From a virus, in the IMG/VR virus record IMGVR_UViG_3300045988_134731, positions 74,545 to 138,544 of that record: DNA of 64,000 bases. One strand, 5' to 3'. Numbering within the stretch: the first letter of the stretch is position 1; each line of letters starts with the position of its first letter. The position numbers and the translations under genes are program-made. The notes below the pieces were generated by a model. It made no database searches. It was not told the DNA's origin and was given only the letters and a program-made list of their open reading frames with translations. This document shows positions 2,634-56,026 of this stretch, piece after piece.

Positions 2634-2665
2634 ATATTAACATAAACTTTATAAAAATTACCTAT
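2634..2665 (-). promoter_or_regulatory. class-2 promoter motif ATAGGTAAT-N14-TGTTAATAT
   Basis: The reverse complement is cATAGGTAATTTTTataaagtttaTGTTAATAt. The distance from ATAGGT to TG is 23 nt, identical in all 9 copies. Confidence 0.5.
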
Positions 2666-2698
2666 GATTATTATTTTATTATTATTTAAATCCTCTTT

Positions 2699-2727
2699 TA
2701 AAAAATTAGAGGGAAATTAATCCCTCT
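2699..2727 (-). terminator. rho-independent terminator
   Basis: Stem AGAGGGA/TCCCTCT (2708-2714 / 2721-2727), followed on the minus strand by AATTTTTT. It lies directly after the ParR-like gene. Confidence 0.6.
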
Positions 2728-2973
2728 TTATAAATTTAAGTCATCCAATGAAAAGTCAAACTCATCTTGTTTCCTTTCTTCTACCTTTATAGTTTCACGT
2801 GAAACACTTTGTTCTACATTCATGCCATTAGCTAAATACGATTGTTCAATCTGCATGTGTAATCGAATTAAATCTTTAATAAATGCTGTTTTTGATGTTT
2901 TACCATTTAAATATTCTATAATATCGCTATCTTTCTCATTGAATGTTAATCTCATTTCTTTTTTAGTAGCCAT
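2728..2973 (-). CDS. ParR-like ribbon-helix-helix centromere-binding protein (putative)
   Basis: 81-aa ORF immediately downstream of the ParM-like gene. The N-terminus KKEMRLTFNEKDSDIIEYLNGKTSKTAFIKDLIRLHM looks like a CopG/RHH fold. Confidence 0.45.
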   Translation of the reverse strand: MATKKEMRLTFNEKDSDIIEYLNGKTSKTAFIKDLIRLHMQIEQSYLANGMNVEQSVSRETIKVEERKQDEFDFSLDDLNL

Positions 2974-2981
2974 AATATCAC

Positions 2982-3896
2982 CTACTTATATAATTTATTA
3001 GCTATATTTAATAAACCTTGTGCTTGTAAAGTTATGTCCTCAGATGATATTGTTTGTTGATATATCTTTTTCATTGTAGGTGATATAATTTTAGCTCCAC
3101 CACCAATAATGAGAATATTTGAATTCTTGATGTTATTTGTTTGCCCTTTTATTTCATTTACTAAATTAACTATAAATTTCTTAACTAACTCTTCTTTGTA
3201 TTTGAAATCACCTACTAATAAAGACTCTTCATTATCAAATATTCTTTTTGTTTGTTCTAATGATAATGATAAATCATATGTTAGGTTAAGATATTCTCTA
3301 CAAGAATTGTATAAATTAAACAATCCTAATCTTATACTAAATCCATCTTTTAATTGCATTTTATTATCGTAGACTGTAATATCACACGTATTCCCACCTA
3401 TATCCACAACCATCGTATCTACATTTTTATTTAATTTATTCATTATACCTTGTATAGATTTGATTGAATAAGACTCTGGAAGTATTGTAACATTCTCAAT
3501 TACTATACTTCTTTTAATCCCATTTATAATTATAGTCTTTTTATTATTCTTTTTAATATAATTTTCCATTTCATCTTTCTTTTTATATTGATTAACAGGA
3601 CAACAAGTTACTAAATTGATATTGTTTTCCGTATCTTTTGTAGCATTTGCTATACAATAATAAAGTAATATTAAATAATTGTCTTTTTTATATTTTAAAA
3701 GTTCATTTTCATACTTTCCTTCACCAATTAAATAACCCTCATCATCTATAGTGAATTTTTGATTTTGTGAAAAGTCATCTAATCCCTTTTCACATTTTTT
3801 AATTCTCGATTCACAAATACAACTCCCATTATTAGATATAGCTATTGACGTTAAATTACCAATGTCTACTCCTATATTGATAATATTTTTACTCAT
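2982..3896 (-). CDS. parM: ParM/StbA-like actin-fold segregation ATPase
   Basis: Actin-fold motifs are present: IGVDIGNLTS (phosphate 1), VVDIGGNTCD (phosphate 2) and IIGGGA (adenosine). The start is set at MSKNIIN because of the GGGGAGG RBS; the ORF track extends to 3989. Confidence 0.7.
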   Translation of the reverse strand: MSKNIINIGVDIGNLTSIAISNNGSCICESRIKKCEKGLDDFSQNQKFTIDDEGYLIGEGKYENELLKYKKDNYLILLYYCIANATKDTENNINLVTCCPVNQYKKKDEMENYIKKNNKKTIIINGIKRSIVIENVTILPESYSIKSIQGIMNKLNKNVDTMVVDIGGNTCDITVYDNKMQLKDGFSIRLGLFNLYNSCREYLNLTYDLSLSLEQTKRIFDNEESLLVGDFKYKEELVKKFIVNLVNEIKGQTNNIKNSNILIIGGGAKIISPTMKKIYQQTISSEDITLQAQGLLNIANKLYK

Positions 3897-4293
3897 AATA
3901 TCATCCTCCCCAAAATATTGATTTATTAATTCCGCTACCCTCATGGTAGTATGATAAAAAATACGATATAAATTGATAATGATTTTCAACTGTTACATTA
4001 CAAATTTTACACCGTATTTCACCTCCTTTACTATAATATATGTTTATTTACAAAAATGTTGACTACTATATACATAAATTTTGTAAAAATATTTATTATA
4101 GCATCTCCTAATTCTCCTTCGGAGGTATCAAATGAGCTAATATATGCCTTTCTAAGAAGTTTGAGTAGTCTTATTGAATAAGAGAGGATGTATAAAATTA
4201 AATCTTCTTAAAATTGAAAAGGCAAATTTTACCATATAGGGTCGAGTTTTTCCGTTTTCATCATACTTAGATTCCACTCAACCCCATATTATT
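3897..4293 (-). other. long untranslated leader, candidate parC centromere or structured RNA
   Basis: About 400 nt without an ORF between the promoter motif and parM. It has three TTACAAAWTT copies (about 4001, 4057 and 4078 inverted), a CTCCttcgGGAG hairpin (about 4121-4132) and a locally GC-richer 160 nt stretch. Confidence 0.35.
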
Positions 4294-4325
4294 ATATTAA
4301 CATAAACATTATAAAAATTATCTAT
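4294..4325 (-). promoter_or_regulatory. class-2 promoter motif (variant ATAGATAAT-N14-TGTTAATAT)
   Basis: The reverse complement is tATAGATAATTTTTataatgtttaTGTTAATAt, with the same 23-nt geometry. Confidence 0.45.
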
Positions 4326-4734
4326 ATTTATTAATTATTTTTTCATAATCAATTTTATATTTTTTGTCTCTTGGATTTCTTAACATTATCCATAACGGAA
4401 TTGAATTTAAAAGGTCAGATGGAAGTTGATATAAAGTTACGTCTATTTCCCATTCTTTAAATTTTTCATAGACATCTAATAAATCAAATTCCAATTCTTT
4501 ATTTCTAAATTTTTGAGTAATTATATTTAATTCCTCTAAATCTAATAATACGTTTGCTTGAGAATGTGCATTACACCAAGCAAAGTTAACCTTTTCTAGA
4601 ACTTCTAAATTCTCTTTTATAACTTTAACATATGATTTGCTTTTATCTGGAAATTCCTTTTGTAAAATGTCAATAAATTCTTCTGACATAAGAATGGACT
4701 CCCTTATCAAAACTGTTACAGTTATATCTTTCAT
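4318..4734 (-). CDS. hypothetical protein
   Basis: 138-aa ORF with an AAAGGAGGAG RBS. Confidence 0.6.
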   Translation of the reverse strand: MKDITVTVLIRESILMSEEFIDILQKEFPDKSKSYVKVIKENLEVLEKVNFAWCNAHSQANVLLDLEELNIITQKFRNKELEFDLLDVYEKFKEWEIDVTLYQLPSDLLNSIPLWIMLRNPRDKKYKIDYEKIINKYR

Positions 4735-6157: not shown

Positions 6158-6184
6158 AATTCCCGTCTCCTTTACTAATTATTT

Positions 6185-6964
6185 TTAATCATCAATTTCT
6201 ACTATGTAATCATACAAAGCATCATATAGTTTTTGTGGTATTTTATCCTTATAATAATCAGCTACTTCTTTGATGTTACGTTCTTTATAATACTTATAAA
6301 CTTCAAAAGCTTTCTCTTGAGTTTCATAACACCCTAAGTGTTCATATTTTGATTTTCCAGTTTTTGGATTAATTAAACTGCAATAAGCTCTATATTTACT
6401 ATTTTGAGTAAGGCTTGTTCCAATGACTGACTCTCCTCTATCATTTTGTCTTTTAGTAAATAAACTATTAATTGTTTCTGGTACAAATATACAAGTCTCT
6501 GGTGAATAAACTTTATTTCTTTTAACTAAAATATCTTTATCTAAACACATTCTTTCACCTTCAACTGTATAATAATTTTTATCATACCATTTTCCAAAGT
6601 TTTGAAAGTTATGCCATTCATTACAAACGGTACAACCTTTATATGCAGGATATTTTTCTCGATTTTTTTCATCATAACATCTTTGTAACATACTATGCCA
6701 AGTGGAATAAACTCTAGTAGCCTTACCATTTTCTTTAGTTTTATACTTCCCCTCTCCAATATATCCCACATTTGAACAACGTGGCTCATAAGGACATTTT
6801 ATATTTCCTTTTTTAAAATTATAATACTGTTGATTTTTAATAATCCAATTATATTCTGTAAAAGATATATCTATGTCTTGTGCATTTCTATATCCTACAA
6901 TAATCATTTTACTTCCAAAATTATTCATTCTTCTCTCACCTGTTCTATCTATTTTCATTCTCAC
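6185..6964 (-). CDS. AP2-like DNA-binding, homing-endonuclease-like protein (paralog 1 of 3)
   Basis: 259 aa. It shares IDRTGER..NNFGSKM, YSTWHSMLQRCYD, LDKDILVK.NK.YSPETC.FVP and KY.A......GK...LG.YETQEKAFEVYKYYKE (AP2-like) with 14232-15011 and 24440-25219. Confidence 0.5.
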   Translation of the reverse strand: MRMKIDRTGERRMNNFGSKMIIVGYRNAQDIDISFTEYNWIIKNQQYYNFKKGNIKCPYEPRCSNVGYIGEGKYKTKENGKATRVYSTWHSMLQRCYDEKNREKYPAYKGCTVCNEWHNFQNFGKWYDKNYYTVEGERMCLDKDILVKRNKVYSPETCIFVPETINSLFTKRQNDRGESVIGTSLTQNSKYRAYCSLINPKTGKSKYEHLGCYETQEKAFEVYKYYKERNIKEVADYYKDKIPQKLYDALYDYIVEIDD

Positions 6965-6976
6965 AATATCTACCTC

Positions 6977-9216: not shown

Positions 9217-9789
9217 TTAATTATTTTTAATTTCTTTTATTACATCTTTGATTAAATTAATTTTTCTATTAATTGTCACACTGCTTACATTTAATGTTTT
9301 AGAAATTTCATTTTGCTTGTATCCATCCATCAACATATTCATGATTATATGTAATTCTTCTGCATTAATTTTATTGTATTTTCCCACATTACGCATTGCA
9401 ATTATATCATCAAATTCTTTTAACAATTCCATATATTCAATATCTTTATATTTCAAATCTATTTTTCCTATGGTATCTAATAGAGTGGTCTGTTCTTTAT
9501 CATCGTCAGATATATTAACATCCATAGATATAAGTACATCTTTGTCTCTATAAACATTATCTCTTAAATATACATTGTATGAATTATATATTATTGCACA
9601 AATAAAACTTTTTATATTTCCTTTAGTAGAATCAAATTTGTTTTTAGCACTCCAAAGCTCCAGTAATGAATGTTGAATCATGTCATCTTTGAATTTGAAA
9701 AATCCATTATAATTTTTATTATATATCTTACCAGCCAATTCTAAAGATAAATTCACATATTCTGTATCACTTATCATTGTTTTACTCAT
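9217..9789 (-). CDS. sigma-70 family (ECF-like) RNA polymerase sigma factor
   Basis: Region 2-like DDMIQHSLLELWSAKNKFDSTKGNIKSFICAIIYNSYNVYLRD. Region 4 HTH: MLMDGYKQNEISKTLNVSSVTINRKINLIKDVI. Confidence 0.7.
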   Translation of the reverse strand: MSKTMISDTEYVNLSLELAGKIYNKNYNGFFKFKDDMIQHSLLELWSAKNKFDSTKGNIKSFICAIIYNSYNVYLRDNVYRDKDVLISMDVNISDDDKEQTTLLDTIGKIDLKYKDIEYMELLKEFDDIIAMRNVGKYNKINAEELHIIMNMLMDGYKQNEISKTLNVSSVTINRKINLIKDVIKEIKNN

Positions 9790-10233: not shown

Positions 10234-10794
10234 TTAATTATTTTCATTTATTTCATTTATTATAAATCTCATTCTATGAATTTTCTTCTTTACAGTATTC
10301 TGACTGCAACCAAACATCTTAGACACTTCAGATTGTGTGTAGCCTTTATCTAATAATTCAATAATTTTATGTAATTCATTTATATTCATTTTTCTACTTG
10401 TTCTTTTGTTTTTATTTATAACATATTTATCAAATTTCTTCATTAGTTCATTAAATTCTATATCGTTGTAATGTATATCATCTTTACCTATAATATCCTC
10501 TAAACCTAGTATATACCCTTCTTCACTTTCTTGCTCTATATAAGTATATTTGTCTTGATGTTTATATACAAAGTCTCTAAAGTACTTTTTAAAGCTTCTA
10601 TCGGCTATCAAATTAAGATAACTATTTAAAGATATATTTTTTCTATTATCGTATCTTTTTATAGATTTACACATTTCTAAAATTGCTAGTCCTATTGCAT
10701 CATCTCTATCATTAGGAAATTGTTTATATTTTTTATTCCATGTTCCCTTTGCTACACTCATTATTAGATTCCCTTTTTCCTCACTAATTTTCAT
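10234..10794 (-). CDS. sigma-70 family (ECF-like) RNA polymerase sigma factor
   Basis: Region 2-like DDAIGLAILEMCKSIKRYDNRKNISLNSYLNLIADRSFKKYFRD. Region 4 HTH: LLDKGYTQSEVSKMFGCSQNTVKKKIHRMRFII. Confidence 0.7.
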   Translation of the reverse strand: MKISEEKGNLIMSVAKGTWNKKYKQFPNDRDDAIGLAILEMCKSIKRYDNRKNISLNSYLNLIADRSFKKYFRDFVYKHQDKYTYIEQESEEGYILGLEDIIGKDDIHYNDIEFNELMKKFDKYVINKNKRTSRKMNINELHKIIELLDKGYTQSEVSKMFGCSQNTVKKKIHRMRFIINEINENN

Positions 10795-10883
10795 ATTTAT
10801 TCCCTCCTTTATTTATCTTATATATATTATAACACATTCTCATTAGAAGTCAACACCTCTAATGAGAATTTTATTAATTATTT

Positions 10884-14138: not shown

Positions 14139-14231
14139 ATTACCAACTCCTTAATTTTTATTTATTATGTATTAAGTATATCATAACCAAATTATTTTTG
14201 TCAATACATTTTATTAATTATTTATAAATTT

Positions 14232-15011
14232 TTAGTCTGTAATTTCAACTTCATAATTATACAAAGCATCATAAAGTTTAATTGGTATCAAATCTTTATA
14301 ATAATCAGCAACTTCTTTAATATTCTTTTCCTTGTAATACTTGTAAACTTCAAATGCCTTATCTTGTGTTTCATAAATTCCTAGATGTTTACCTTTTGAT
14401 TCTCCTGTTTCTGGATTAATCATACTACAATGTACTATATATTTACCATTTTTAAGAGAACTTGTTCCTATAACTGATTCTCCTCTTGATTTATCACGTT
14501 TGATAAATAAACCATTAATTTTTTGAGGTACAAATACACAAGTATCCGGTGAATAAATCTTATTGTGCTTTACTAAAATATCTTTATCTAAATGCATTAT
14601 TTCATCTTTTACTTCATAATAGTTATCATAATACCACTTAGCAAAATTTTGAAAATTTAACCAATCTTCGTCAACTTCACAATTAGTATATGTAGGTTGT
14701 TTCTTGTGGTATTTAGAATCATAACATCTATATAACATATTATGCCATGTATCATAAACTCTAGTATTTTTACCATTCTCTTTTACTTTATACTCCCCTT
14801 CTCCCGGATAACCAACTTCATATACTTTTCTCTCATAAGGGCAACTAATTTTACCTTTTTTAAAGTTATCATATCGTCTATTTTTAGCAGTCCAATTATA
14901 CTCTGGGAAATAGACGTCAATATCTCTATTTGTTCTATACTCTACAATTATCATTTTACTGCCAAAATTATTTATTCCTCTTTCGCCTGTTCTATCTATT
15001 TTGTTATTCAT
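14232..15011 (-). CDS. AP2-like DNA-binding, homing-endonuclease-like protein (paralog 2 of 3)
   Basis: 259 aa and colinear with 6185-6964 and 24440-25219. The 3' third is also conserved at the nucleotide level. Confidence 0.5.
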   Translation of the reverse strand: MNNKIDRTGERGINNFGSKMIIVEYRTNRDIDVYFPEYNWTAKNRRYDNFKKGKISCPYERKVYEVGYPGEGEYKVKENGKNTRVYDTWHNMLYRCYDSKYHKKQPTYTNCEVDEDWLNFQNFAKWYYDNYYEVKDEIMHLDKDILVKHNKIYSPDTCVFVPQKINGLFIKRDKSRGESVIGTSSLKNGKYIVHCSMINPETGESKGKHLGIYETQDKAFEVYKYYKEKNIKEVADYYKDLIPIKLYDALYNYEVEITD

Positions 15012-15036
15012 AATATATCATCCCCTTTATTAATTA

Positions 15037-16611: not shown

Positions 16612-16716
16612 ATTATCATTCTCCTTTTTATTTATTATTTTTATTGATATTTCATTAACTTTATTAATTATTTTTATTCTGCACTCAATTTACATCAACT
16701 CCTTTCTTATATTACT

Positions 16717-16748
16717 ATATTAACAATTACTATTGAAAAATTACCTAT
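16717..16748 (-). promoter_or_regulatory. class-2 promoter motif ATAGGTAAT-N14-TGTTAATAT
   Basis: The reverse complement is cATAGGTAATTTTTcaatagtaatTGTTAATAt, with the 23-nt geometry. Confidence 0.5.
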
Positions 16749-16783
16749 GCCTATAAACAAAAAAAAGAAACTAGAGATTTTCT

Positions 16784-17656
16784 CTAATTTCTCGAAGAAT
16801 TACATCCATAATATAAATGGTGATATTTAAAGCTTAACTCATTAGCATTCATATTATATCCATTTATATCAAGATAGCTCTTTGTATTTTGTATAGTCCA
16901 TATAATATTATCTAATGTTTGTAATACAAACATGTCATACATGATTCCACTTTGGTATATTCCTGTAGCCGTTAAGGTAACATTTAATCCACCATGTTGT
17001 AATTCTTTTGTTAAAACAGTTAATTTTCCACTTAAATTACTACGTTTCATTGGTTCTAAACCATTATTAGTATATTTATTACATAATGTCTTGAATAAAT
17101 ATTCACTATGCATATTTAAATCATAATAAAGCACATTTCTACTTCTTGTTGTATTAACATATACTTCTTGTTCTATTGTATCTTTAACTAACTCTTTCAT
17201 TATATCATCACACAATATCTTATTTCCATTTACATTTATATAACTATAGTCTTCTGCTACGTCAGAAATCTTAATTTCTAATAGGTCTTTAAATCCTTTG
17301 CCTAATACTTTATTAAATATCATATATATTAATAATTTGTCTTGTGCATTTATAAGTGAATTGATTATATCTAATATTTGAGTTTTTGTGAAGTATTTAG
17401 ATTCGTCAAAATATAAACATTTTTCCATTAATTCATCTTCTTTTAAATCGTATTTAATTCCCTTTGTATCTAATATTTCTTTTAAAATTCTAAATCCGTC
17501 GTAGAAACTACTTCTATTAATTGTCTTTAGATTTTTTATAGCAAAATCTTTTATTACTTGTTCATTTATATTTTTTTCACCTATTTCATTAATTAAATCA
17601 TTCACTTTATTTTCCATTCTATTCATTTTAATTTGTTTATCACACATCTTTTTCAT
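16784..17656 (-). CDS. hypothetical protein
   Basis: 290-aa ORF with an AAGGAAGGGG RBS. Confidence 0.6.
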   Translation of the reverse strand: MKKMCDKQIKMNRMENKVNDLINEIGEKNINEQVIKDFAIKNLKTINRSSFYDGFRILKEILDTKGIKYDLKEDELMEKCLYFDESKYFTKTQILDIINSLINAQDKLLIYMIFNKVLGKGFKDLLEIKISDVAEDYSYINVNGNKILCDDIMKELVKDTIEQEVYVNTTRSRNVLYYDLNMHSEYLFKTLCNKYTNNGLEPMKRSNLSGKLTVLTKELQHGGLNVTLTATGIYQSGIMYDMFVLQTLDNIIWTIQNTKSYLDINGYNMNANELSFKYHHLYYGCNSSRN

Positions 17657-17688
17657 TTTAACCCCTTCCTTAGTTGTCTGCCTTGCTT

Positions 17689-17717
17689 ATTATAACATAT
17701 GATATCCTTAATGACAA
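17689..17717 (-). promoter_or_regulatory. sigma-A-type promoter (TTGTCA-N17-TATAAT) bracketed by a 9-bp inverted repeat
   Basis: The -35 is at 17712-17717 and the -10 at 17689-17694. The inverted-repeat arms TTAGTTGTC (17670-17678) and GACAACTAA (17713-17721) flank it. Confidence 0.55.
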
Positions 17718-17803
17718 CTAACTTTATTAATTTTTCTTTTTATATATTATATACAAATTAGAGTTTAAATATTCACAATTTATTAATTATTTTGAAAATG
17801 AGC

Positions 17804-17832: not shown

Positions 17833-17873
17833 GAAAGTAACGATTATTTAATTCTGTTTTTAATTACCCTTTA

Positions 17874-21439: not shown

Positions 21440-21541
21440 TTTATATTCCTCCCCTTATTAATTATTTCTATCATCTTTTTTACTTTCCATATATATATAT
21501 ATATAATTCTTTTACATATTTAGAACACCTCCTATATCATT

Positions 21542-21573
21542 GTATTAACAACTATATGTAAATAATCACCTAT
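21542..21573 (-). promoter_or_regulatory. class-2 promoter motif ATAGGTGAT-N14-TGTTAATAC
   Basis: The reverse complement is cATAGGTGATTATTtacatatagtTGTTAATAc, with the 23-nt geometry. Confidence 0.5.
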
Positions 21574-21607
21574 GATTTTAATAATTTTTAAAATCTTTTT
21601 AAACTAT

Positions 21608-31581: not shown

Positions 31582-32009
31582 AAATTTTATTAAAGTGGAT
31601 AGTACAATTTACTTTATTTTAGTAAAGCTATAAAAAAGTATTTTATCGTACAAAATTATTTTTATGAAGCGTTCCATTTTAAAATTGATTTTAAAGTTTA
31701 ATAAATAAAGTTGGTATTAATTATTAAGTTTAACTTAATTAAATAAAGCAGAATGATAATATCTCCTTTAAAATATTAAGGTAAATCAAGGATTAGCTTT
31801 ATTTAATTAGGGAAAATATAAAGATTGTTTTATATTATAAAGTTATTATAAAATACTGTAATCGTTGATATTACTAGCTTTAGAGTAATTTGACAAATAT
31901 ATACATGCTTTATATAGTAAAGAGAACAAAAGAGAATAGCTTAATTAGTTAATATAAATTAACATTATGCTTTATTATCTTAATTATCATAGGTATATTT
32001 ATTAACTAT

Positions 32010-32079
32010 CTAGTATTATCAACGGTTGTAAGCTTTAGGAAAATGCAAAGGAAAACAGTGAAACCGTTGATAATACTAG
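32010..32079. repeat. perfect 18-bp inverted repeat CTAGTATTATCAACGGTT / AACCGTTGATAATACTAG
   Basis: The arms are 32010-32027 and 32062-32079. Related CGTTGATATTACTAG copies lie at 31863-31877 and 32400-32414. Confidence 0.85.
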
Positions 32080-32352
32080 GATTGAATACCATACATAGGT
32101 ATACACAAATAGAAGAAAACAGAAGAATGTAGCAATTGCAACTGTTTCACGCTTTACAATATACCCACTATAGGTATAGGATGCAGTTATTGCAACGGTT
32201 GTATAGTATTGGGTAATATAGGTAAACTGTGAAACAATTATAGGTAAACACTTTAGGAAAATAAAGGAAAATAGATAAATCACTTTAGATTATTAGGAGA
32301 AATTGAATAAATGGTAAAAAATGTAAAATGGAAAAATTAGAAAAATTTTACT

Positions 32353-36809: not shown

Positions 36810-36905
36810 ATAATATGATGAATACAAGGAATATCAATAGAAGTAGCTTTCTTAAATACTATTAAATACTAAATTAAATACTATATATATTAAATAATAT
36901 AATTC

Positions 36906-36937
36906 ATAGGTAATTTTTCATTATTAGTTGTTAATTA
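36906..36937 (+). promoter_or_regulatory. class-2 promoter motif (variant -10 TGTTAATTA)
   Basis: cATAGGTAATTTTTcattattagtTGTTAATTA, with the 23-nt geometry. Confidence 0.4.
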
Positions 36938-37031
36938 TATAAATATAATTATAAAATAATACATATATTCGGAGTGTTTTTGTAATGGTATTAAAGAAGC
37001 TTAATAAAAAATCTTAAAGGACAAACATATT

Positions 37032-37063
37032 TTTGTAATTCATAGGTAATTTTTTATATAGTT
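37032..37063 (+). promoter_or_regulatory. class-2 promoter motif ATAGGTAAT-N14-TGTTAATAC
   Basis: cATAGGTAATTTTTtatatagttaTGTTAATAC, about 45 nt upstream of the ATG at 37108. Confidence 0.5.
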
Positions 37064-37107
37064 ATGTTAATACATAAATAAGAAATAAATAAAAAGGAGT
37101 TGATATT

Positions 37108-37467
37108 ATGTGGTTTAGACGTGCAAGATATTTTGGTTTATATAGCTTTTCATTATTACAAATCGTAATTTTTTCACTTATATTATTTGGAGCTTGTTAT
37201 TTCTCTTTAATTGCAGGAGATTTATTTGGTGAGGTAGGTTTTATGTTTACTCTTATAGGATTTATGTTTCTACCTATGATTATATTGATAATGATGGTAG
37301 TAATTCACGACGCTATAGTTAAAAAGAGAGAGAAAAAAATTGCTAAAGCAGAAGAAGAAATAAAAAGACAACAAGAATTAGAGGAAGAAGTAAGAGCATT
37401 TAATGATAAGATTACTGAAACATTAAAAAATAGCAAGAAAGAAAAAATAATAATAAAAGAAAAATAA
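37108..37467 (+). CDS. membrane protein with a charged coiled C-terminus
   Basis: 119 aa with two or three hydrophobic segments followed by KKREKKIAKAEEEIKRQQELEEE. AAAGGAG RBS. Confidence 0.6.
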   Translation: MWFRRARYFGLYSFSLLQIVIFSLILFGACYFSLIAGDLFGEVGFMFTLIGFMFLPMIILIMMVVIHDAIVKKREKKIAKAEEEIKRQQELEEEVRAFNDKITETLKNSKKEKIIIKEK

Positions 37468-37472
37468 AAATC

Positions 37473-37504
37473 ATAGGTGATTTTTATAACATTTATGTTA
37501 ATAC
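37473..37504 (+). promoter_or_regulatory. class-2 promoter motif ATAGGTGAT-N14-TGTTAATAC
   Basis: cATAGGTGATTTTTataacatttaTGTTAATAC, followed by the CAAGGAGGTG RBS. Confidence 0.5.
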
Positions 37505-37524
37505 ATAAACAAGGAGGTGATAAT

Positions 37525-39578: not shown

Positions 39579-39832
39579 AACCGTACAAATCAAAAATTAC
39601 ATTTTAAAATAACATAGTTTTATCGCAACATTTTAAAGACAAAAAATTCATTTTCTTAAAAGATAAGAGAAGAGTAAAAATAATTAATAAAGAGATAACT
39701 CCCCTTATCAAAGGGGATAGAATTGTAATTATTCGTCAGAGTTTAACAAAGCCCATTAAACTCTTCCTCACACTCTTTCATTTACTCATTACATTCGTAA
39801 ACTTAGAGTGACACTAAAAATAATTTAAATTC

Positions 39833-39864
39833 ATAGGTAATTTATTATACATGAATGTTAATAT
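39833..39864 (+). promoter_or_regulatory. class-2 promoter motif ATAGGTAAT-N14-TGTTAATAT
   Basis: cATAGGTAATTTATtatacatgaaTGTTAATAT, followed by TAAGGAGGTGG and a 9-codon mini-ORF (MRAFLRAFN). Confidence 0.5.
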
Positions 39865-39987
39865 ACTAATATAAGGAGGTGGCAAAATATTCAATGAGAG
39901 CTTTTCTAAGAGCTTTTAATTAAAAATAGAATTAGTTATTCAAGAAAGAGGTAGAATGTCTTAAAATTGAATTTAGGAGGTATGAAT

Positions 39988-41161: not shown

Positions 41162-41180
41162 TAAAATAGGGGTGGATAAA

Positions 41181-42359
41181 ATGGGAAGAGTATATTTCAA
41201 TAGATTTTTTAGCAAGATAGATGGAAAAGGTATTTATGATTATACAAAATTAGATACAAATATAAATGATTTAGAAGGTAGAATACAATACATATACGAT
41301 TTGTTAAATGTGATAAAAGATAAGAATGGAATAGAATTTAGTAATGATGAATTTTGGAATGAAGTATTTGTTCAACGTATTAATAAAACAAGTTATATTG
41401 ATTTAATGCCTAATTCAGAAACAGAATTATATTCTGAATCAAATATAGCAAAGACTTTAGAAGCTATAGCAAATTATATAATGTGGTGTGACCCTAATAA
41501 AAAAAAGAAAGAACATATTAAAATATATGACAATGAAAAGAAGTTTCAAGATGCTATATCTAAAGATAGAAAATATTTTGATACATATGGAGAATCGGTA
41601 GATGACGGTGTTATTATATTAAGGAGAAAAGAAAATTACAAGAAAGCTAAAGATGAAAAAGTTACAGCTGAAGATTTAAAAAATTATCCAGAGTTAAGAG
41701 AATATAAAAAAGAAATAGATAGATTGAGTTCTTACATAAGAGAAGATAGATTGGATGAGTTCATGGAATACATGCAAAACAAAGGACACACTAAGATTAA
41801 AACGGAAAGACAAGCTAAATCATTTTTAGTAAACCATATAGGAGAACTTAAAAAAGATATGTTACAAACAAAAATAGAATTGGCAAGACCTATTGTTTGG
41901 AAAGCTCCATTAAAAGATGCAGGGGAGCCCGATTGGGACGAACTTGATGAATTGGATTCTACTCATATGAAAGCTTTATTGCAATTATATAGAGAATTAG
42001 AAGTGTATGATTTTCAAAGCGATTTAGGATGTATATTTAAAGATTTAGAAGATGTACTCAATGAGGTTAAATTAACTGAAAAACAAGAAGAATTATTGAA
42101 TTTATGGATGAAAGGTATGACGGTTAGTAAAATAGCTAAAGAGTTAAATAAAAGCGTAGGTACAGTAAGTAAATATTTAGATAGAATAGTTAATAAAATA
42201 GTTGAGGTATATGAAGAAAAATTAGAAGATTGGTATTATTTAAATATAAGAAAAGGAGAATATAAACGTTGTAATAAATGTGGTGAAGTTAAATTAGTTA
42301 ATAAATTTAATAAAAATGGAAGTAAAGGAGTATTATCTATATGTAAAAAATGCCGATAA
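41181..42359 (+). CDS. sigma-region-4-like HTH regulator with a C-terminal zinc ribbon (candidate late sigma or activator)
   Basis: KQEELLNLWMKGMTVSKIAKELNKSVGTVSKYLDRIVNKI is a region 4/LuxR-type HTH. CNKCGE...CKKC lies at the C-terminus. Confidence 0.5.
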   Translation: MGRVYFNRFFSKIDGKGIYDYTKLDTNINDLEGRIQYIYDLLNVIKDKNGIEFSNDEFWNEVFVQRINKTSYIDLMPNSETELYSESNIAKTLEAIANYIMWCDPNKKKKEHIKIYDNEKKFQDAISKDRKYFDTYGESVDDGVIILRRKENYKKAKDEKVTAEDLKNYPELREYKKEIDRLSSYIREDRLDEFMEYMQNKGHTKIKTERQAKSFLVNHIGELKKDMLQTKIELARPIVWKAPLKDAGEPDWDELDELDSTHMKALLQLYRELEVYDFQSDLGCIFKDLEDVLNEVKLTEKQEELLNLWMKGMTVSKIAKELNKSVGTVSKYLDRIVNKIVEVYEEKLEDWYYLNIRKGEYKRCNKCGEVKLVNKFNKNGSKGVLSICKKCR

Positions 42360-44633: not shown

Positions 44634-45599
44634 ATGTATTTTAACAAAAATCACGAAGAAAAAGTTAAGAAAAATGGGAGATATATTTATATAGGTTCGT
44701 ATAAGAAAGGCGAAATAAGTAAAGATAAAAGAAACATAGGTATTAAAAGTACATATATAAGAGTTAAATGTATTAATTGCAATCACGAATATGATATTTC
44801 GTTAGCATATTTGAAAAACAACACCAAGTGTATTTATGAAAATAGTATTGCATATTATATTGAGGTTGAATTAGGAAAAGATTTAAATAAGTATTGGAAT
44901 TGGGAGAAAAATAACATAAATCCATATTATACATATAAAAATAGTAATTTAAGTGTTACAATGAAATGTACCGAAAAAGACTATCATGATGATTATCCAG
45001 TTGTAATAAAAGATTTTTATAGAGGATGTAGATGCCCATATTGTACAAATAGAAACGGTAAAGTTCATTCTAAAGATTCTTTTGGAGCTTTATATCCAGA
45101 AAAAGCTAAACATTGGGATTATAAAAAGAATAATAAGTCTCCTTATGAAGTCGCACCTAAAACTGCAAATAAATATTGGTTTAAATGTGAAGAATGTGGA
45201 AAATCTTTTAAAAGAAGTTTAACCACATATAACGCTGATATGGTGATTTGTAAAAATTGTCATATATCAAAAGGAGAGAGAATAATTAAAGATTATTTAA
45301 TTAATAATAATTTTTATTTTATTCATGATAAACCATATTTTAAAGATTTATTATCTGATTTAGGAAGAAGATTGAGACCAGATTTTATATTGCCTAATGA
45401 AAGAGTTTGGATAGAATACGATGGTAGACAGCATTATGAACTACAAAAAGGATGGCAAACTAAAGAAAATTTTAAACGATTGCAAAAGCACGATGAATTA
45501 AAAAATAATTATGCTAAACAACATAATTGGAAATTAATAAGAATACCTTATTATGATTTTGAAAATATAGAAGAAGTTTTAAATAATATATTAAAATAA
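44634..45599 (+). CDS. free-standing homing-endonuclease-like protein (zinc-ribbon repeats plus a Vsr/DUF559-like PD-(D/E)XK nuclease)
   Basis: Treble-clef-like units (YWNWEKNNINPYY..., HWDYKKNNKSPYEV...YWFKCEECGKSF). The C-terminus is RPDFILP....WIEYDGRQH....KHDELKNNYAKQHNWKLIRIPY. It is a paralog of 50967-51965 and 56050-57156. Confidence 0.6.
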   Translation: MYFNKNHEEKVKKNGRYIYIGSYKKGEISKDKRNIGIKSTYIRVKCINCNHEYDISLAYLKNNTKCIYENSIAYYIEVELGKDLNKYWNWEKNNINPYYTYKNSNLSVTMKCTEKDYHDDYPVVIKDFYRGCRCPYCTNRNGKVHSKDSFGALYPEKAKHWDYKKNNKSPYEVAPKTANKYWFKCEECGKSFKRSLTTYNADMVICKNCHISKGERIIKDYLINNNFYFIHDKPYFKDLLSDLGRRLRPDFILPNERVWIEYDGRQHYELQKGWQTKENFKRLQKHDELKNNYAKQHNWKLIRIPYYDFENIEEVLNNILK

Positions 45600-47264: not shown

Positions 47265-47581
47265 TAAGTTTAGCCGTCTAAAAGAGAAATTTTTTAGATT
47301 ATTAGAGGGATGTATCGGTTCACTAAGTGAATAATAATTTTATGTTAAGACAGTATAAAATTAAAAGTGAGTCCTCCTATTTGTATGGGATAATACCGAG
47401 AGCAGTAATATCTAATACTGTTTGTAACGCATAAGGAATGAACGATAATATGAGAGTAATAATTTCCTCACGAGCTTCCTCCCCTTAACAGATAATGCTG
47501 AAGGTGAAAATATATGCTGAGCTTACATGATGGTAAAATGTAAGAACTATAAGATAAAAAGCTTATAGGGTAACAAAACTG
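47265..47581 (+). mobile_element. putative self-splicing (group I-like) intron 1 in terL, ORF-less
   Basis: 317 nt, GC-richer than its surroundings and without an ORF. The upstream exon ends in T and the insert ends in G. It shares sequence blocks with the second insert. Confidence 0.6.
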
Positions 47582-47754
47582 TTACGTGGAAATGTGCTAG
47601 TCGCAGATGAATTTAGGCTTATCAAATTAGATATAATAAATTCAGTTTTAAAACAATTCTTAACAAATCCAAGAAAACCTCCATTTTTAGAAAAACCCGA
47701 ATATGCAGATTATCCATTAGAATCAAATATGGAGATAAAAAGATATGTCTCAAT
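47582..47754 (+). CDS. terL: terminase large subunit, exon 2
   Basis: Encodes LRGNVLVADEFRLIKLD... (Walker B-like VADEF) and has no start codon of its own. The 3' boundary is uncertain by a few codons (alternative 47736). Confidence 0.6.
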
Positions 47755-48145
47755 ATAAGTAAAGTATAAGTGCTTATATTTAAAATAGGGTAAAATCGGT
47801 CAAATGTATAGTGATATACATGGTAAGGAAGGCTAAGTCTATAAAGTTAATTAATGATTTTTACGTTATAGATAAGCTAATACCGAGATAACTTATATGT
47901 TTAAAAACTATAAGTATTGTAACGCATAGGGGCTGAAACTGTTTGAGGGATAATTACCCTCCACAGAATATAATGCCGTAATTATTTTACATACTAAAAT
48001 TAGTATCCCAAGAGTATCCTACATTCATTATACAGAATTTAGAGAATGAAAATATATGCTAAACTGGGTTAGAATTGACTAACCGATGAAAATGAGGGAA
48101 ACCTCCAGAGTATAGGATAAAAAGCCTATAGTTAATAACAAATTG
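47755..48145 (+). mobile_element. putative self-splicing (group I-like) intron 2 in terL, ORF-less
   Basis: 391 nt. It shares TAATACCGAGA, TGTAACGCATARGG, GAAAATATATGCT, ATARGATAAAAAGCYTATAG and TAACAAA..TG with intron 1, and ends in G. Confidence 0.6.
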
Positions 48146-49265
48146 ATATCTTTCTAGTGCATGGTTAAAAGTTCACTGGAGTTATGAAAAGTTTATGACT
48201 ATACTAAATAGAATGTTTGAAGGTGGTAAGGCATTTGCTTGTGCAATTCCTTATTTAGCTTCTTTAGACCATAAACTTGTATTAAAAGATAAGATTGAAG
48301 AAGATAAAGAGGACATGGGCGAATTTGTATTTAATATGGAATATGGAGCTATATGGCATGGACAAAGTGGTGATTGCTTCTTTAATACATCTGATATGTT
48401 AAATGCTAGAGTTTTAAAGAATTGTTATTATCCATTAACAGATGACGACTATAGAAATCCGGAAGAGAAGAAAAAGAAATTAAGACAAATGCCTAAAAAG
48501 AAAGACGAAATAAGAATAATTTCGGTCGATGTAGCCACAGCAAAAGCTAACAAATCAAATAAAAATGATAACTCTATTTTTACTTTATGGAGATTACTTC
48601 CTAGTGGAAATAATATTATTAGAGAAGTTGTTTATATGGAATCACATAATGGTATGAAATTTGAAAAACAAGCCACTAGAATTAAGAGATTATATACAGA
48701 ATTTAAAGCTGATAAAATCATTATAGATGGTGGTGGATTAGGTATAGCGGTAATACAAGAGATGGAAAAATCATCTTATGACGAAGGTATCGATGAACAT
48801 TACGAACCTTTTGGTATTTATGATATGAGTACACAATCAAAAGATTTTGAACCTTTAAAGAATGGTATAAATTGTATATATGTGATTAAAGGGAATCAAA
48901 AAATAAATAATGATTGTGCCGTATATCTTAAAAATGCTTTTGGTAGTAAAAAAATAAGATTATTAATAGAAGAAAATGAAAAAAGAGGAGACTTTAGTAA
49001 AGACTTAAAATATCATCAAGACGCTGAATATCATGCTAATAAAATAGCACCATTTATTCAAACATCTAATTTTATATTTGAATCAATAAACTTAGATTAT
49101 GAAACTATGGGGAATGGTGATATAGTTCTTAAAGAAAAAGGAAGAAATCGTAAGGATAGATATTCTTCTATTACTTATGGTAATTATTTAGCAGAATTGA
49201 TAGAAAGAGATATAAGAAAGAAAAATAGGAATAAGAAAAAGAGACATATTTTCTTAGCTAATTAA
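48146..49265 (+). CDS. terL: terminase large subunit, exon 3 (nuclease half)
   Basis: The open frame runs from 48147 (YLSSAWLKVHW...) well upstream of the first ATG at 48195. Exons 1-3 total 1767 nt, giving one continuous 588-codon frame. Confidence 0.65.
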
Positions 49266-50966: not shown

Positions 50967-51965
50967 ATGTATTTTAATGAAAAACATAAAGAAAAAGTTG
51001 AAAATCGTGGAGATGGTTATGTCTATGTAGGAAGTTATCATAAAAATGAAGTAACTATGGATGGGAAAAATAAAAAATATAGTAATACTTATGTAAGGGT
51101 TAAATGTCCTTATTGTAAAAAGGACTATGATGTTATATTTGGTCATTTTAATCGTGGTAGTAAATGTCCTAATTGTTGTCATAGTTATGAGAATAGTTTT
51201 GCTTATTATATTGAAAAAGAATTAAATGAAAAATTAGAGGATTATTGGGACTTTGAAGAAAATGAAAGAAGAGGTATAAATCCTTACTGTATAACTTGTA
51301 AAAGTCATAATAAAATCATTTTAATATGTGATAAAACTGATTATCATGGTAATTATACTACAACTCCTGCTCATTTTTTAGAAGGTAAAAGATGCCCTTA
51401 TTGTTCACATACAAATGGTAAAATACATCCAAAAGATAGTTTTGGAGCTTTATATCCTGAAAAAGCCAAATATTGGTCTCCTAATAACAAGAAATCACCT
51501 TTTAAAGTAACACCTAGAACTAATATAAAATATAAGTTTATATGTGAAGAATGTGGTAATGAATTTGAGAGGGATTTAGCAAATTTAAATCAAGTTGATA
51601 CAGGTGTGTTTTGTAGAGAATGTAATTCTTCTCAATTAGAAATAAAAACTAAGAATGTATTAGTTAAATATAATATCAAATATGAAATGCAAGTGAAATA
51701 TGACGATTTATTAGGACTAGGAAAAAGAAATCTTTCTTATGACTTTTACTTACCAAGTTATAACCTATTGATAGAGTGTCAAGGCGTACAACACGAATCA
51801 TGGCAAAAAACTTGGATTACCAAAGAGGATTTTGAAAAACAATTAGAACATGATAGGAGAAAAAGAGAATATGCACAAAAACATAACATTAGATTATTAG
51901 AAATTTGGTATTATAACATAGATAATATCGAAGATATATTAATAAAAGAATTAAATTTAGGATAG
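50967..51965 (+). CDS. free-standing homing-endonuclease-like protein (paralog 2)
   Basis: The first roughly 60 aa are near-identical in pattern to 44634-45599 (MYFN.KH.EKV...Y.YVGSY.K.E...D..N). The C-terminus is SYDFYLP...LIECQGVQH...EHDRRKREYAQKHNIRLLEIWY. Confidence 0.6.
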   Translation: MYFNEKHKEKVENRGDGYVYVGSYHKNEVTMDGKNKKYSNTYVRVKCPYCKKDYDVIFGHFNRGSKCPNCCHSYENSFAYYIEKELNEKLEDYWDFEENERRGINPYCITCKSHNKIILICDKTDYHGNYTTTPAHFLEGKRCPYCSHTNGKIHPKDSFGALYPEKAKYWSPNNKKSPFKVTPRTNIKYKFICEECGNEFERDLANLNQVDTGVFCRECNSSQLEIKTKNVLVKYNIKYEMQVKYDDLLGLGKRNLSYDFYLPSYNLLIECQGVQHESWQKTWITKEDFEKQLEHDRRKREYAQKHNIRLLEIWYYNIDNIEDILIKELNLG

Positions 51966-54320: not shown

Positions 54321-54340
54321 TAAAACAGGAGGTAAAATTT

Positions 54341-54862
54341 ATGTATCAAATATTAACTTATGTAGAAGATAATTTTGCTAAATCAGCAATATGCTCTACT
54401 GAATTAAAAAATGGTGAAGTAGTATTAGTAAAAGGACTAGCTGATTCAACTCTAGCTAAAATAGATGATATAGGAGTTGAAGGTGAATGTTATGAAGTGA
54501 CAAACTTAGAAGATGACGCTAATAAAATATTAGCTATGGTAGCATCTGACGGTCATAGATATGAAAAAGAAACATCTTATAATTTTGGTGATTATGCAAA
54601 CACACCAGCTGGAGAAGCAGTGAGAATTTATTTCTTACACAAAGGTATGGTTGTTGATATAGAAAAAACACTTATAGATGGAACTGTTGCTAAAGGAGAC
54701 CAATTAACTGTTAAAGCTGGTTCACATAATCTTAAAAAATACACTGCTCCAGTTGCTAGTGAAGCAGGTACTGGTGAAGCAGGTGCTAAAAGAATAGTAG
54801 GGGAAGTTATAGGCACTTCACAATTAATGGGTAAAGATATGGTGCAAATATTATTCTATTAA
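54341..54862 (+). CDS. hypothetical head-module protein (possible decoration or auxiliary capsid protein)
   Basis: 173-aa ORF with a CAGGAGG RBS, immediately upstream of the capsid gene. Confidence 0.5.
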   Translation: MYQILTYVEDNFAKSAICSTELKNGEVVLVKGLADSTLAKIDDIGVEGECYEVTNLEDDANKILAMVASDGHRYEKETSYNFGDYANTPAGEAVRIYFLHKGMVVDIEKTLIDGTVAKGDQLTVKAGSHNLKKYTAPVASEAGTGEAGAKRIVGEVIGTSQLMGKDMVQILFY

Positions 54863-54896
54863 GAATAAAATAATTAATAAAATGGAGGTTAAAAGA

Positions 54897-55741
54897 ATGA
54901 TAGATAACGATGTTAGACAAATGGTAATAGACTTACATAACGGTGTGTGTTCTTATTCAAGAAAAGAAGCTTCAGATGTTATAAGAAATATGATATTTGA
55001 AAAAGTAGAACCACTTCCAGAAAAAAAATCTAATTATAGAAGATGGTTAAAAAGAAATGGTAATACAGTATTTGAATTATTAGAAGAATTAATAACTGTA
55101 ACTCATAACGAAATAACTGTTGAATCTTTTGGGGATTTAGTAGATGTTGACACTTTTGATATAGGAGATAAAAAAGAATTTTTAATTCAAAATGACGAAT
55201 TGTTCAAAGTTGCTATAATGGCTACTGGTGTCAAAACAGTTCATAGACAAAGAATCTATGATAAAAAGGTAGATACTAAAGCTTTCAGATTAGGCGTTAA
55301 AATCTATGCTGAAATGTTTGATTTCTTAAAAGGAAATATAGACTGGACTTTATTTGTAGATAGAGTATCTAAATCTTTTGATAAAAAAGTATGTACTTTA
55401 GTTACAAAAACTATATTTGGAGCTTATGATGCTTCTGGAAATCCAAATTTATGTAAAGCATCTAATGACGGTGCTTTATCAACTACTTTAAAAGAAATGA
55501 TAGCTAAAGTTGCAGATTCTACAGGTCAAGAAGTTCAAATACTAGGAACTAAAACTGCATTAGCTCATGTAAAATCAGATGCGACTTTTGTATCAGATGC
55601 TGAAAAAGACGATAGAAGAAATTATGGATATACTCAAGTATTTGAAGGTACTCCTTTAGTTCCATTACCAAATTATTATGATAAAACTACTGGTGCTTTT
55701 GAAGTTGATGACGATATGTTATTAATAGTTCCGGTTAACGT
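54897..55741 (+). CDS. putative major capsid protein, exon 1
   Basis: The start is set at MIDNDV after the TGGAGGT RBS. The frame ends ...LLIVPVNVE-TAA, but a matching C-terminal frame resumes at about 57302. The boundary is uncertain by about 6 nt. Confidence 0.55.
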
Positions 55742-55994
55742 AGAATAAATACTACAACAGCCCGTATATCGAGCAATCGGTATAGGACACAACTTGAATT
55801 GCAGGTAATGGGTAAAGCTCTACACCAAAGCGGATAGTGAAAACTAAGACGTAACGGTACGAAAGTAGAAAAAACGTAGAGATGGTGCATGGTTAAATCC
55901 TAAACACTAGATGATTAAATTCATTACAATCCCTGTTCATGCAGGTAAGCGTCCCTGTTTTAATATTAATTATTTTGTTTAAAAGGTTAAAATA

Positions 55995-56026
55995 ATAGGT
56001 AATTTTATCAATAGTTATGTTAATAC
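55995..56026 (+). promoter_or_regulatory. class-2 promoter motif inside the intron, upstream of the endonuclease ORF
   Basis: aATAGGTAATTTTAtcaatagttaTGTTAATAC, followed by the GAAGGAGGTGG RBS and the ATG at 56050. Confidence 0.5.

Follow-up and report, generated by a model that had tools for sequence, protein, structure and literature searches.

A stretch of 64 kb of viral DNA (positions 74,545 to 138,544 of the IMG/VR record IMGVR_UViG_3300045988_134731, referred to here as the window) contains nine copies of a bipartite motif, ATAGGTAAT-N14-TGTTAATAC, which very likely constitutes a phage-specific promoter class. To judge from its sequence and surroundings the class would be of the 'middle' or delayed-early type and would initiate transcription with something other than the sigma-A factor of the host. 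The explanation favoured here, which is given about an even chance of being right, is that these non-sigma-A promoters are read by sigma-1, a small sigma factor encoded by the phage itself.

Both strands of the window were searched with up to three mismatches allowed, and nine matches were obtained, whereas 100 dinucleotide-preserving shuffles gave 0.52 on average and never more than 3, so that none of them reached nine. The motif had been put forward in an original prediction made from the sequence alone, and its nine copies are borne out by this comparison; eight of the positions given were right, but the plus-strand copy placed at 37032 begins at 37042. Four copies are on the minus strand, with cores at 2634-2665 (within 2620..2671), 4294-4325 (4280..4331), 16717-16748 (16703..16754) and 21542-21573 (21528..21579), and five on the plus strand, with cores at 36906-36937 (36900..36951), 37042-37073 (37036..37087), 37473-37504 (37467..37518), 39833-39864 (39827..39878) and 55995-56026 (55989..56040). 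The consensus of the window copies can be written ATAGGTAAT-N14-TGTTAATAY, the two parts being termed box 1 and box 2, and the copies at 37042-37073 and 55995-56026 are perfect matches. The copy at 4294, which abuts an intergenic element (AAATAATTAATAAA) that recurs throughout the window, is weaker, with ATAGATAAT as its box 1; the weakest is that at 36906, which adjoins the iteron-like repeats of a Rep_3 initiator gene, has TGTTAATTA in place of box 2 and is without the third conserved block (box 3) described below. The invariant spacing that had been claimed was confirmed, as with one mismatch permitted in each box all nine sites had the 14-nucleotide spacing and any other spacing from 6 to 25 gave at most one site. 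A position weight matrix built from the nine copies, a scan of the kind that the original prediction had proposed, gave no sites of intermediate score.

The motif is non-palindromic, and all nine copies in the window are intergenic and co-oriented with the gene downstream. Two of them come directly after intrinsic terminators, one at 2708..2727 (minus strand) just upstream of the copy at 2634, and the other at 16765..16793 (minus strand) between a gene for a MrpR-like protein and the copy at 16717. An unusually strong ribosome-binding site had been said to follow every copy; four or five of the nine do have (A)AGGAGGTG or AAGGTGGTG within ~10 nucleotides, but the remainder have weaker or more distant Shine-Dalgarno (SD) sequences. 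At 37473 the SD sequence begins 7 nucleotides past box 2, and at 21542 and 39833 it precedes a start-stop (ATG-TAA in the case of 21542) or an open reading frame (ORF) of 10 codons, after which comes the real gene. The description of box 2 as a -10 element ending in TAATAC likewise holds for some copies, but in five the ending is TAATAT or TAATTA.

When IMG/VR was scanned for the exact pattern, the motif was found in more than 100 stretches, mostly contigs of ~113-140 kb with many copies each, which were 71-97% identical to the window in their overlapping parts. Counts in stretches of 40-70 kb from each of nine contigs gave 13-16 copies, and thus at least 13-16 per genome, and the lineage recurs in many human-gut metagenome assemblies. 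When ~130 distinct instances were pooled three conserved blocks became apparent: tC-ATAGGTAATTTTt (box 1), TGTTAATAy (box 2) and TAATATAA (box 3), the last of which sits just before the ribosome-binding site and had been missed in the original prediction. The ~10 nucleotides between boxes 1 and 2 (positions 14-23) are variable. Circularity was removed by re-ascertaining sites from one part of the cassette only. Among 99 distinct sites found by box 1 alone, box 2 was 89-99% and box 3 81-90% conserved at a fixed offset, and at the 64 sites found by boxes 2 and 3 alone box 1 was 89-100% conserved. The N14 spacing was found in 132 instances in the relatives, against at most three at neighbouring spacings. 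Six independent assemblies retrieved via the protein sigma-2, a paralogue of sigma-1, all have a copy of the motif directly after the MrpR-like gene, and at this syntenic copy the spacer differs among the assemblies and the downstream gene has been exchanged. Because the boxes diverge less than the spacer, and the gene downstream is swapped, selection must act on the boxes and on their spacing; for that spacing to be so rigid, a single rigid reader must be in contact with the two boxes at once, in the way of an RNA polymerase holoenzyme. A dyad-symmetric operator was considered and rejected, boxes 1 and 2 being neither inverted nor good direct repeats of each other.

A variant of the cassette, AA(A/G)GGT(G/T)AyTTTT-N-TGTTAATAT-ATAAGTATAAA, in which box 1 is degenerate, box 2 intact and box 3 altered, was seen at three loci (L110 at 18352, L111 at 18967 and L114 at 19133) and in contigs 123101 and 135797, and often precedes AAATAATTAATAA instead of an SD sequence. 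No convincing other repeated cassette was found in stretches of 13-21 kb from clades with MrpR alleles of 59%, 50% and 37% identity.

The genes headed by the motif in the left part of the window are a short ORF followed by a DUF7666/pentapeptide gene at 1648-2520 (copy at 2634), a leader of ~300 nucleotides followed by an actin-like ALP/ParM segregation gene at 2982-3989 (copy at 4294), a gene at 15610-16611 in whose slot relatives carry antirepressor-type genes of the ANT/pRha/ORF6N kinds (copy at 16717), and an AntA/ANT antirepressor-like gene at 20855-21439 (copy at 21542). The three copies from 36906 to 37473 head three small-gene operons at 36.9-39.6 kb, 37108-37467 being behind the copy at 37042, and 37525-37737 through 38370-39578 behind that at 37473. 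The copy at 39833 heads the operon 39988-42359, which contains a DNA methyltransferase gene and the gene of a sigma-like protein of 395 amino acids, and the copy at 55995 heads an HNH homing-endonuclease gene at 56050-57156. In the lineage as a whole 176 distinct copies were found at the heads of at least 44 clusters of genes, and at 122 of the 176 an SD-led ORF of at least 40 amino acids is present within 200 nucleotides. The targets include DNA polymerase III alpha, the anaerobic ribonucleotide reductase NrdD, an AAA_24 ATPase, PhoH, TnpB, methyltransferases, HNH endonucleases and several types of antirepressor, which is a typical replication and nucleotide-metabolism 'middle' regulon plus some mobile genes.

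The mobile genes among these targets raise the question of whether the cassette is primarily a promoter at all, or is instead a linker that travels with, or recombines, mobile gene cassettes such as homing endonucleases and morons. At a conserved copy the downstream genes have been exchanged, the targets include HNH, TnpB and antirepressor genes, and one copy, that at 55995, is inside an intron-like insertion. The structural gene at 54882-55748 (phrog_4088) stops ~50 residues short, the missing end being encoded at ~57310-57480, and in a search of a phage database homologues in nine phages aligned uninterrupted across the junction; an insertion of ~1.57 kb carrying the motif copy and the HNH gene therefore splits the structural gene. 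A permissive Rfam scan of 44.4-57.7 kb found no intron model for this insertion. The window has three HNH genes of a single family (phrog_559; 44634-45599, 50967-51965 and 56050-57156), but the motif precedes only the third, the other two being preceded by AAATAATTAATAAA and an SD sequence. Core replication genes (polymerase III alpha, NrdD) carry the motif as well, and the divergence of the spacer while boxes and spacing are held argues for selection for recognition rather than recent copying. Any role in recombination could be a by-product of the conservation of a promoter, and the linker explanation is regarded as highly improbable.

The signal also appears to be private to this uncultured lineage, since it is nearly absent elsewhere. 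A stringent form of the motif had only two isolated matches in 185,579 bacterial species genomes, and a 63-nucleotide consensus cassette gave chance-level matches only against 50,697 phage records (blastn, E values up to 10).

Placement, orientation, upstream terminators and the rigid geometry of the two boxes are all in keeping with a promoter, in which box 1 would be the -35-region element and box 2 the -10-region element. Box 2 is the only usable -10 because the SD sequence at the site at 37473 starts 7 nucleotides after it, and the predicted start site consequently falls inside box 3, so that transcription would begin a few nucleotides ahead of the ribosome-binding site. Two alternative -10 elements, at positions 30-35 (TAYAnT) and 35-40 (TAATAT), were rejected, as with either of them the start would fall in or beyond the SD sequence at 37473.

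That host sigma-A itself reads the motif is unlikely because box 1 is unlike TTGACA, the hexamer is never TATAAT and there is a single spacer length. The sigma-type two-box geometry distinct from the phage's own sigma-A promoters, and the lack of any resemblance of the -35 to TTGACA, were both part of the original prediction and both stand. The hexamer at positions 27-32, compared at 133 sites that had been ascertained by box 1, was TAATAC in 61, TAATAT in 53 and TATAAT in none; TATAAT is one transposition away from the TAATAT-type hexamer, yet is never used, and the last hexamer position, where sigma-A has its most conserved T, is C in 46% of copies. The sigma-A promoters of the same phage (pattern TTGACA-16/17/18-TATAAT) have spacers of 16, 17 and 18 bp in the ratio 5:8:9. 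About 22 of these were found at one mismatch or fewer and ~30 at two or fewer on the minus strand of the left arm, in agreement with the roughly 30 promoters of this type claimed for the window, and the right arm has almost none on its coding strand.

A promoter for sigma-A that depends on an activator, in the manner of T4 MotA or of class II activation, is a further possibility, though an improbable one. Box 2 would then be a weak extended -10 and box 1 would be bound by a phage DNA-binding protein contacting RNA polymerase, for example the protein of 395 amino acids, which has a helix-turn-helix (HTH) of the GerE/LuxR type above the Pfam cut-off. TGnTAATAy does have the geometry of an extended -10, and class II or MotA-type activation also requires fixed spacing. 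The hexamer statistics (C last in 46%, TATAAT in 0 of 133) argue against it, as do the facts that the recognition helix of the 395-residue protein differs between genomes that share the motif, that the motif heads this protein's own operon, and that no MotA- or AsiA-like protein was found among the ORFs scanned.

As had been predicted, the phage encodes three sigma-like proteins, all of which match sigma-70-family profiles. Sigma-1 (9217..9789, minus strand) has 190 amino acids and putative domains sigma-2 and sigma-4 of the sigma-70 family (domain names, as distinct from the protein sigma-2); the protein sigma-2 (10234..10794, minus strand) is a sigma-70-family paralogue of 186 amino acids that is mosaic between genomes. 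The sigma-2/sigma-1 operon has a sigma-A-type promoter, TTGACT-16-TATAAT with TG, at 10826..10853 (minus strand). The third protein, of 395 amino acids, is encoded on the plus strand at 41172..42359, starting with GTG at 41172 and not at 41181 as had been given; it matches the 'sigma factor' family phrog_5767 end to end, and its sigma-like part comprises residues 174-345. Matches to TIGR02937, which covers the domains sigma-2 and sigma-4, had E values of 3e-10 for sigma-1, 8e-10 for the protein sigma-2 and 4e-7 for the 395-residue protein, the first two with scores just under the curated cut-off. Sigma-1 scored 22.6 bits against a cut-off of 21.1 with PF07638 (Sigma70_ECF) and 21.0 against a cut-off of 24 with Sigma70_r2. 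The best match of its family profile in the PDB was a sigma-H factor (3mzy, E 1e-4, nearly full length), and the structural model of sigma-1 has two helical domains joined by a disordered linker, with sigma factors making up all 50 of its top 50 fold neighbours.

The choice between the three proteins rests on their recognition helices. Across the motif-bearing genomes the helix of sigma-1 (region 4.2) is VSSVTINRKI or, at worst, VSNVTINRKI, so that at least nine of its ten residues are identical, and in a set of 67 homologues no block is more conserved than residues 171-180 (0.94). The protein sigma-2 has two unrelated types of helix, CSQNTVKKKI and VSSTNVNKKV, with three of ten residues identical, and in the 395-residue protein KSVGTVSKYL is found against RKLPSITGML, with two of ten identical. 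Both are unlikely readers because their helices differ between genomes with an identical motif. Sigma-1, the only one of the three to keep its recognition helix across the motif-bearing genomes, is left as the best candidate reader, a role assigned here by comparison of sequences. The 395-residue protein is conserved beside the structural module in many large Firmicute siphoviruses, a neighbourhood which suggests that it is probably a late regulator. The phage sigma cascade of the original prediction is plausible, because a copy of the motif heads the operon of this third sigma-like gene; sigma-1 is retained as its candidate, but the other two proteins are disfavoured by their variable helices.

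An alternative sigma factor of the host, transition-phase and sigma-H-like, might instead read the motif, with the phage sigmas serving other promoters. The motif resembles the sigma-H promoter of Bacillus subtilis, AGGAATT-N14-CGAAT (PMC6849360), in that box 1 keeps the AGG core and the 14-nucleotide spacer is the same. The -10 differs, however, being TGTTAAT against CGAAT, although the consensus is that of B. subtilis and may not be that of the host, and the stringent motif is restricted in bacterial species genomes to the two isolated matches given above. The phage has a sigma-H-like protein of its own with an invariant recognition helix, so that a private specificity is the more economical explanation, and a host factor is considered a slim prospect.

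A number of observations weigh against sigma-1 as the reader of a private promoter class. The phage is uncultured and known only from metagenomes. With TIGR02937 sigma-1 reached 39.8 bits against a cut-off of 42.9, over positions 25-162 of 165, and its model has a mean predicted local distance difference test (pLDDT) score of 72 with weak fold matches (E 2e-3 or worse). The resemblance to the sigma-H consensus is partial, with 5/7 positions shared in the -35 and, at the N14 register, the G alone in the -10. All four candidate proteins, the fourth being the MrpR-like protein, are present in every motif-bearing genome compared, with identities of 66-100% for sigma-1, 45-100% for sigma-2, 46-100% for the 395-residue protein and 59-100% for the MrpR-like protein, and this universal co-occurrence means that phylogenetic profiling cannot single out the reader. 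In two independent assemblies of the clade with the 59% MrpR allele sigma-1 has a frameshift just before the HTH, and canonical copies of the motif persist in that clade. The predicted 5' untranslated region is very short. Finally, a promoter does not strictly need a conserved span as long as the ~44 bp seen here, which hints at a second reader such as a repressor on boxes 2 and 3 or on box 1. The frameshift itself was seen within 17464-18000 of locus L119 and in the same region of L132; an intact QNEISKTLNVSSVTINRKINLIK is present in the next frame, and an extra sigma-1-like paralogue (44% identity) comes after the frameshifted gene.

A repressor that could act in this way is encoded at 16784..17656 (minus strand). 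The MrpR-like protein has 290 amino acids and belongs by structure to the MrpR/YopR/SroF family of recombinase-fold repressors: its model (pLDDT 90) has MrpR/YopR and phi3T SroF as its top seven structural matches (E 2e-8 to 3e-7, template modelling score up to 0.65; Cre at 6e-4), and the domain PF22823 (MrpR_C_cat) is found in all 42 full-length homologues. In SPbeta MrpR binds SPBRE at ~10 promoters (PMC10516654). The SPBRE derived here from NC_001884, ATAGACAAATACAAATAATATGTATATAATAAAT...GGAGG, has ~12 copies, each just ahead of an SD sequence, and thus the same cassette architecture as the motif. SroF binds its long asymmetric operator, which is present at many distant sites, as a monomer, and an antirepressor whose gene comes just downstream of the SroF gene brings about its release (bioRxiv 10.1101/2025.11.27.690993).

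By analogy with these systems the cassette could be an extended -10 promoter for host sigma-A with a conserved flank, either box 1 with its upstream bases or boxes 2 and 3, that is the operator of the MrpR-like master repressor. The repressor would silence ~15-25 dispersed lytic promoters in a plasmid prophage, and an antirepressor would relieve it. Besides the family assignment and the shared architecture, this explanation can draw on the antirepressor-type genes that relatives carry behind the copy directly after the repressor gene, on the plasmid functions present (Rep_3 and ALP/ParM), on a regulon logic (replication genes, ant, late regulator) that agrees with that of SPBRE in SPbeta, and on the nature of the motif as a non-palindromic element repeated at many sites, nine of them in 64 kb. 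The SroF box of phi3T, CAGTAATTTTATTTTTATTCTTAATG, also has GTAATTTT...TTAAT like boxes 1 and 2, but 3 bp closer together, a likeness that may be a coincidence in AT-rich DNA.

The geometry is more difficult to reconcile with a repressor. SroF reads 24 of 26 contiguous bp, whereas the motif has an unread centre of 10 bp in a span of 33-44 bp, so that one monomer cannot enforce the spacing between boxes 1 and 2, although either half of the cassette alone would fit an operator of the SroF type; an operator beside a promoter needs no single-bp precision. SPBRE is TAGACA-17-TATAAT, a hexamer that the 133 copies here never have, C being last in 46% of them. Genomes with MrpR-like proteins of only 59% identity have one and the same motif, and ~22 consensus sigma-A promoters in the left arm, being without the motif, would escape the repressor. 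Furthermore, no motif box is present at the promoter of the repressor gene itself, which has a distinct inverted repeat that covaries. An SPBRE-type cassette is accordingly viewed as unlikely, while still the most serious of the alternatives. The idea that the motif tracks the MrpR allele, which had been suggested by the occurrence of alleles of at least 92% identity in motif-rich loci and of a 59% allele in the motif-poor L119 and L120, was rejected, as contigs 123101 and 135797 have the 59% allele and canonical copies in their right arms.

The promoter of the MrpR-like gene, TTGTCA-17-TGTTATAAT (in the region 17657-17730), is a good sigma-A extended -10 promoter in this phage. It is flanked by the 9-bp inverted repeat TTAGTTGTC...GACAACTAA, which is unique in the window and is likely to be an autoregulatory operator. 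When it was compared in L119, L121 and L123-L133 both arms were found to change together in the distant clade L121 (AGTTGAT...ATCAAC).

The two proteins need not exclude one another, and a dual-key switch can be envisaged in which sigma-1 reads boxes 1 and 2 and the MrpR/SroF-type repressor clamps boxes 2 and 3, ~24 bp that include the -10 and the start. This combination is thought doubtful. Were it true, ~15-25 dispersed promoters would be gated jointly by a private sigma factor and a monomeric master repressor, the antirepressor genes behind the same cassette would form a feedback loop, and the resulting lysis-lysogeny architecture would have no described counterpart in SPbeta, where host sigma-A is used, or in any phage-plasmid.

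With sigma-1 as the reader the programme of the phage would run as follows. Host sigma-A RNA polymerase would first transcribe the left arm, including the sigma-2/sigma-1 operon, and sigma-1, a small two-domain sigma of the sigma-H/ECF-like kind, would then guide the host core polymerase to the motif. The motif class would switch on replication, nucleotide-metabolism and antirepressor-type genes and the plasmid-segregation operon, and also the intron-borne homing endonuclease and the operon of the 395-residue sigma-like late regulator.

The genome to which these promoters belong has a G+C content of 25% in the window and two divergent arms. The left arm (minus strand, 1-31 kb) consists of many small genes behind the ~22 near-consensus sigma-A promoters, and the right arm includes an FtsK-like gene, a DNA methyltransferase, an exonuclease, the three HNH homing-endonuclease genes, portal, protease and tail genes. 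Among annotated genomes it comes closest, with protein identities of 25-36%, to the ~130-kb Clostridioides difficile phiCD211/phiCDIF1296T group, the Lactococcus 949 group and Brevibacillus Sundance, and SPbeta-type genes (YopX, YonV_C, MrpR_C_cat) occur in relatives. When 15 kb of the window were compared with phages by megablast no relatives were found, and across the window there was no Rfam family at gathering score and a tRNA search found none. A Rep_3 initiator gene (35649-36605, minus strand) has iteron-like repeats, CCCTTAA(A/T)A.C.CATATT, alongside it at ~36640-36800, and together with the ALP/ParM gene and a tyrosine recombinase gene at 19768-20655 these features identify the element as a phage-plasmid.

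The plasmid-type origin formed by Rep_3 and its iterons, at 35.6-36.8 kb, replaces the origin that had been suggested near 32 kb. The original prediction had also noted copies of the half-site ATAGGTA there and proposed that the protein reading the motif binds them too. The local cluster is real, with five 7-mers on the plus strand of a non-coding region (31989, 32095, 32170, 32218 and 32240, spanning 31989..32246; the last had been placed at 32246), but the shared binding protein is unsupported. ATAGGTA occurs 10 times outside the cluster and the motif, against a composition estimate of ~14 for the whole window, and the cluster shares only 7-9 nucleotides with box 1. A 7-mer at its chance rate with so short an overlap makes a common binding protein a conjecture. 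Relatives keep the cluster, but this says little because the whole region is ~92% identical. Three DnaA-box-like repeats, TGTGGATAA, are present at ~32350-32550.

Several other features of the window were noted. The element AAATAATTAATAAA, with one mismatch or fewer, occurs 65 times along the whole window, always on the strand that is transcribed (51/51 on the minus strand in the left arm, 14/14 on the plus strand in the right arm; examples are at 631, 8438, 12925, 26675, 37728, 40392 and 61360). It usually comes after the stop codon that ends the upstream gene, and directly after it is an SD sequence or the TTGACA of a sigma-A promoter. It behaves as an intergenic punctuation element and could be UP-element-like, a translational enhancer, an RNA-processing site or a protein-binding site. 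Three paralogous genes of ~259 amino acids (6181-6970, 14228-15017 and 24436-25225), with 73-76% DNA identity, are dispersed in the left arm. Non-coding DNA of ~930 nucleotides at 47267-48195, between an ORF of 171 amino acids and a terminase-like gene (48195-49265), holds repeated segments of the type GTAACGCATA(A/G)GG and may contain one or more further introns or be a packaging region.

If the explanation favoured here is correct, an abundant uncultured family of ~135-kb phage-plasmids of the human gut runs a private transcription programme, with its own sigma-H-like sigma factor and a promoter orthogonal to host sigma-A. A promoter with more than 130 natural variants would then be usable as an orthogonal expression part in low-GC Firmicutes, and the cassette would mark the middle regulon in metagenomic contigs in the absence of transcriptomics.

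Comparison with promoters of known alternative sigma factors gives partial likenesses. The sigma-H promoters of B. subtilis (PMC6849360) share with the motif, AGGTAAT-N14-TGTTAAT, a -35 7-mer led by AGG (AGGTAAT against AGGAATT, 5/7), the 14-nucleotide spacer and a G second in the downstream element. At the N14 register, however, the -10 gives TGTTA with only the G in common, and xxAAT aligns only at N16; nor is the motif a signal of bacterial genomes. The group-5 sigmas TcdR, BotR, TetR and UviA are, like sigma-1, proteins of ~185-190 amino acids, and are found on clostridial mobile elements. The -10 elements of the BotR/TcdR group are GTTATA or GTTAAT (PMC4031146), and GTTAAT is present at positions 25-30 of the motif (114 of the 133 sites ascertained by box 1), with a 17-bp spacer placing the -35 at TAGGTA. 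Their -35 is TTTACA (PMC4031146), in contrast to ATAGGTAAT here, and region 4.2 of sigma-1, ...LNVSSVTINRKINLIK..., is without the SRQ signature. Tblastn found no similarity of sigma-1 to any phage-borne relative.

Phage-encoded sigma cascades are well known from SPO1, with gp28 for middle genes and gp33/34 for late genes, and from T4, with gp55. As is proposed here, host sigma-A drives the early genes, including small phage sigma genes, and a distinct bipartite class heads middle genes of the replication type and makes a further regulator. The consensus sequences differ, and the element described here is a temperate-looking phage-plasmid and not a virulent myovirus. Sigma-1 does not detectably resemble the proteins of any isolated phage; when sigma-1 and sigma-2 were compared by tblastn with the 50,697 phage records, no relative was found. 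Phage P1 is a plasmid prophage whose C1 repressor binds scattered asymmetric operators at replication, antirepressor and late-activator promoters; the likeness is one of logic only, as the fold of the repressor is different.

Another close parallel is with SPbeta. It too has a large (~135 kb) Firmicute siphovirus genome with genes of the YopX, YonV and MrpR types, an asymmetric cassette of ~35-45 bp in 10-20 copies before the SD sequences of early, replication and regulator operons, and a recombinase-fold repressor of which a homologue is encoded here. SPBRE, however, is a sigma-A promoter close to consensus (TAGACA-17-TATAAT) whose spacer is conserved, whereas the cassette described here is non-sigma-A with a variable centre, and apart from ATAG... 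and TATGT the two show no sequence relationship. Small sigma genes are absent from SPbeta, in which the late genes are served by the YonO polymerase, whereas the present lineage has three sigma-like genes. The principle of a phage sigma cascade and of dispersed promoter/operator cassettes is well known, but the lineage is new and uncultured. The comparison of SPbeta with the phiCD211 group would be extended by it, since sigma-like proteins and a non-sigma-A cassette occupy the slot that YonO and the sigma-A-type SPBRE have in SPbeta, and the presence of a conserved MrpR/SroF-type repressor alongside would make the evolution of this regulatory layer testable.

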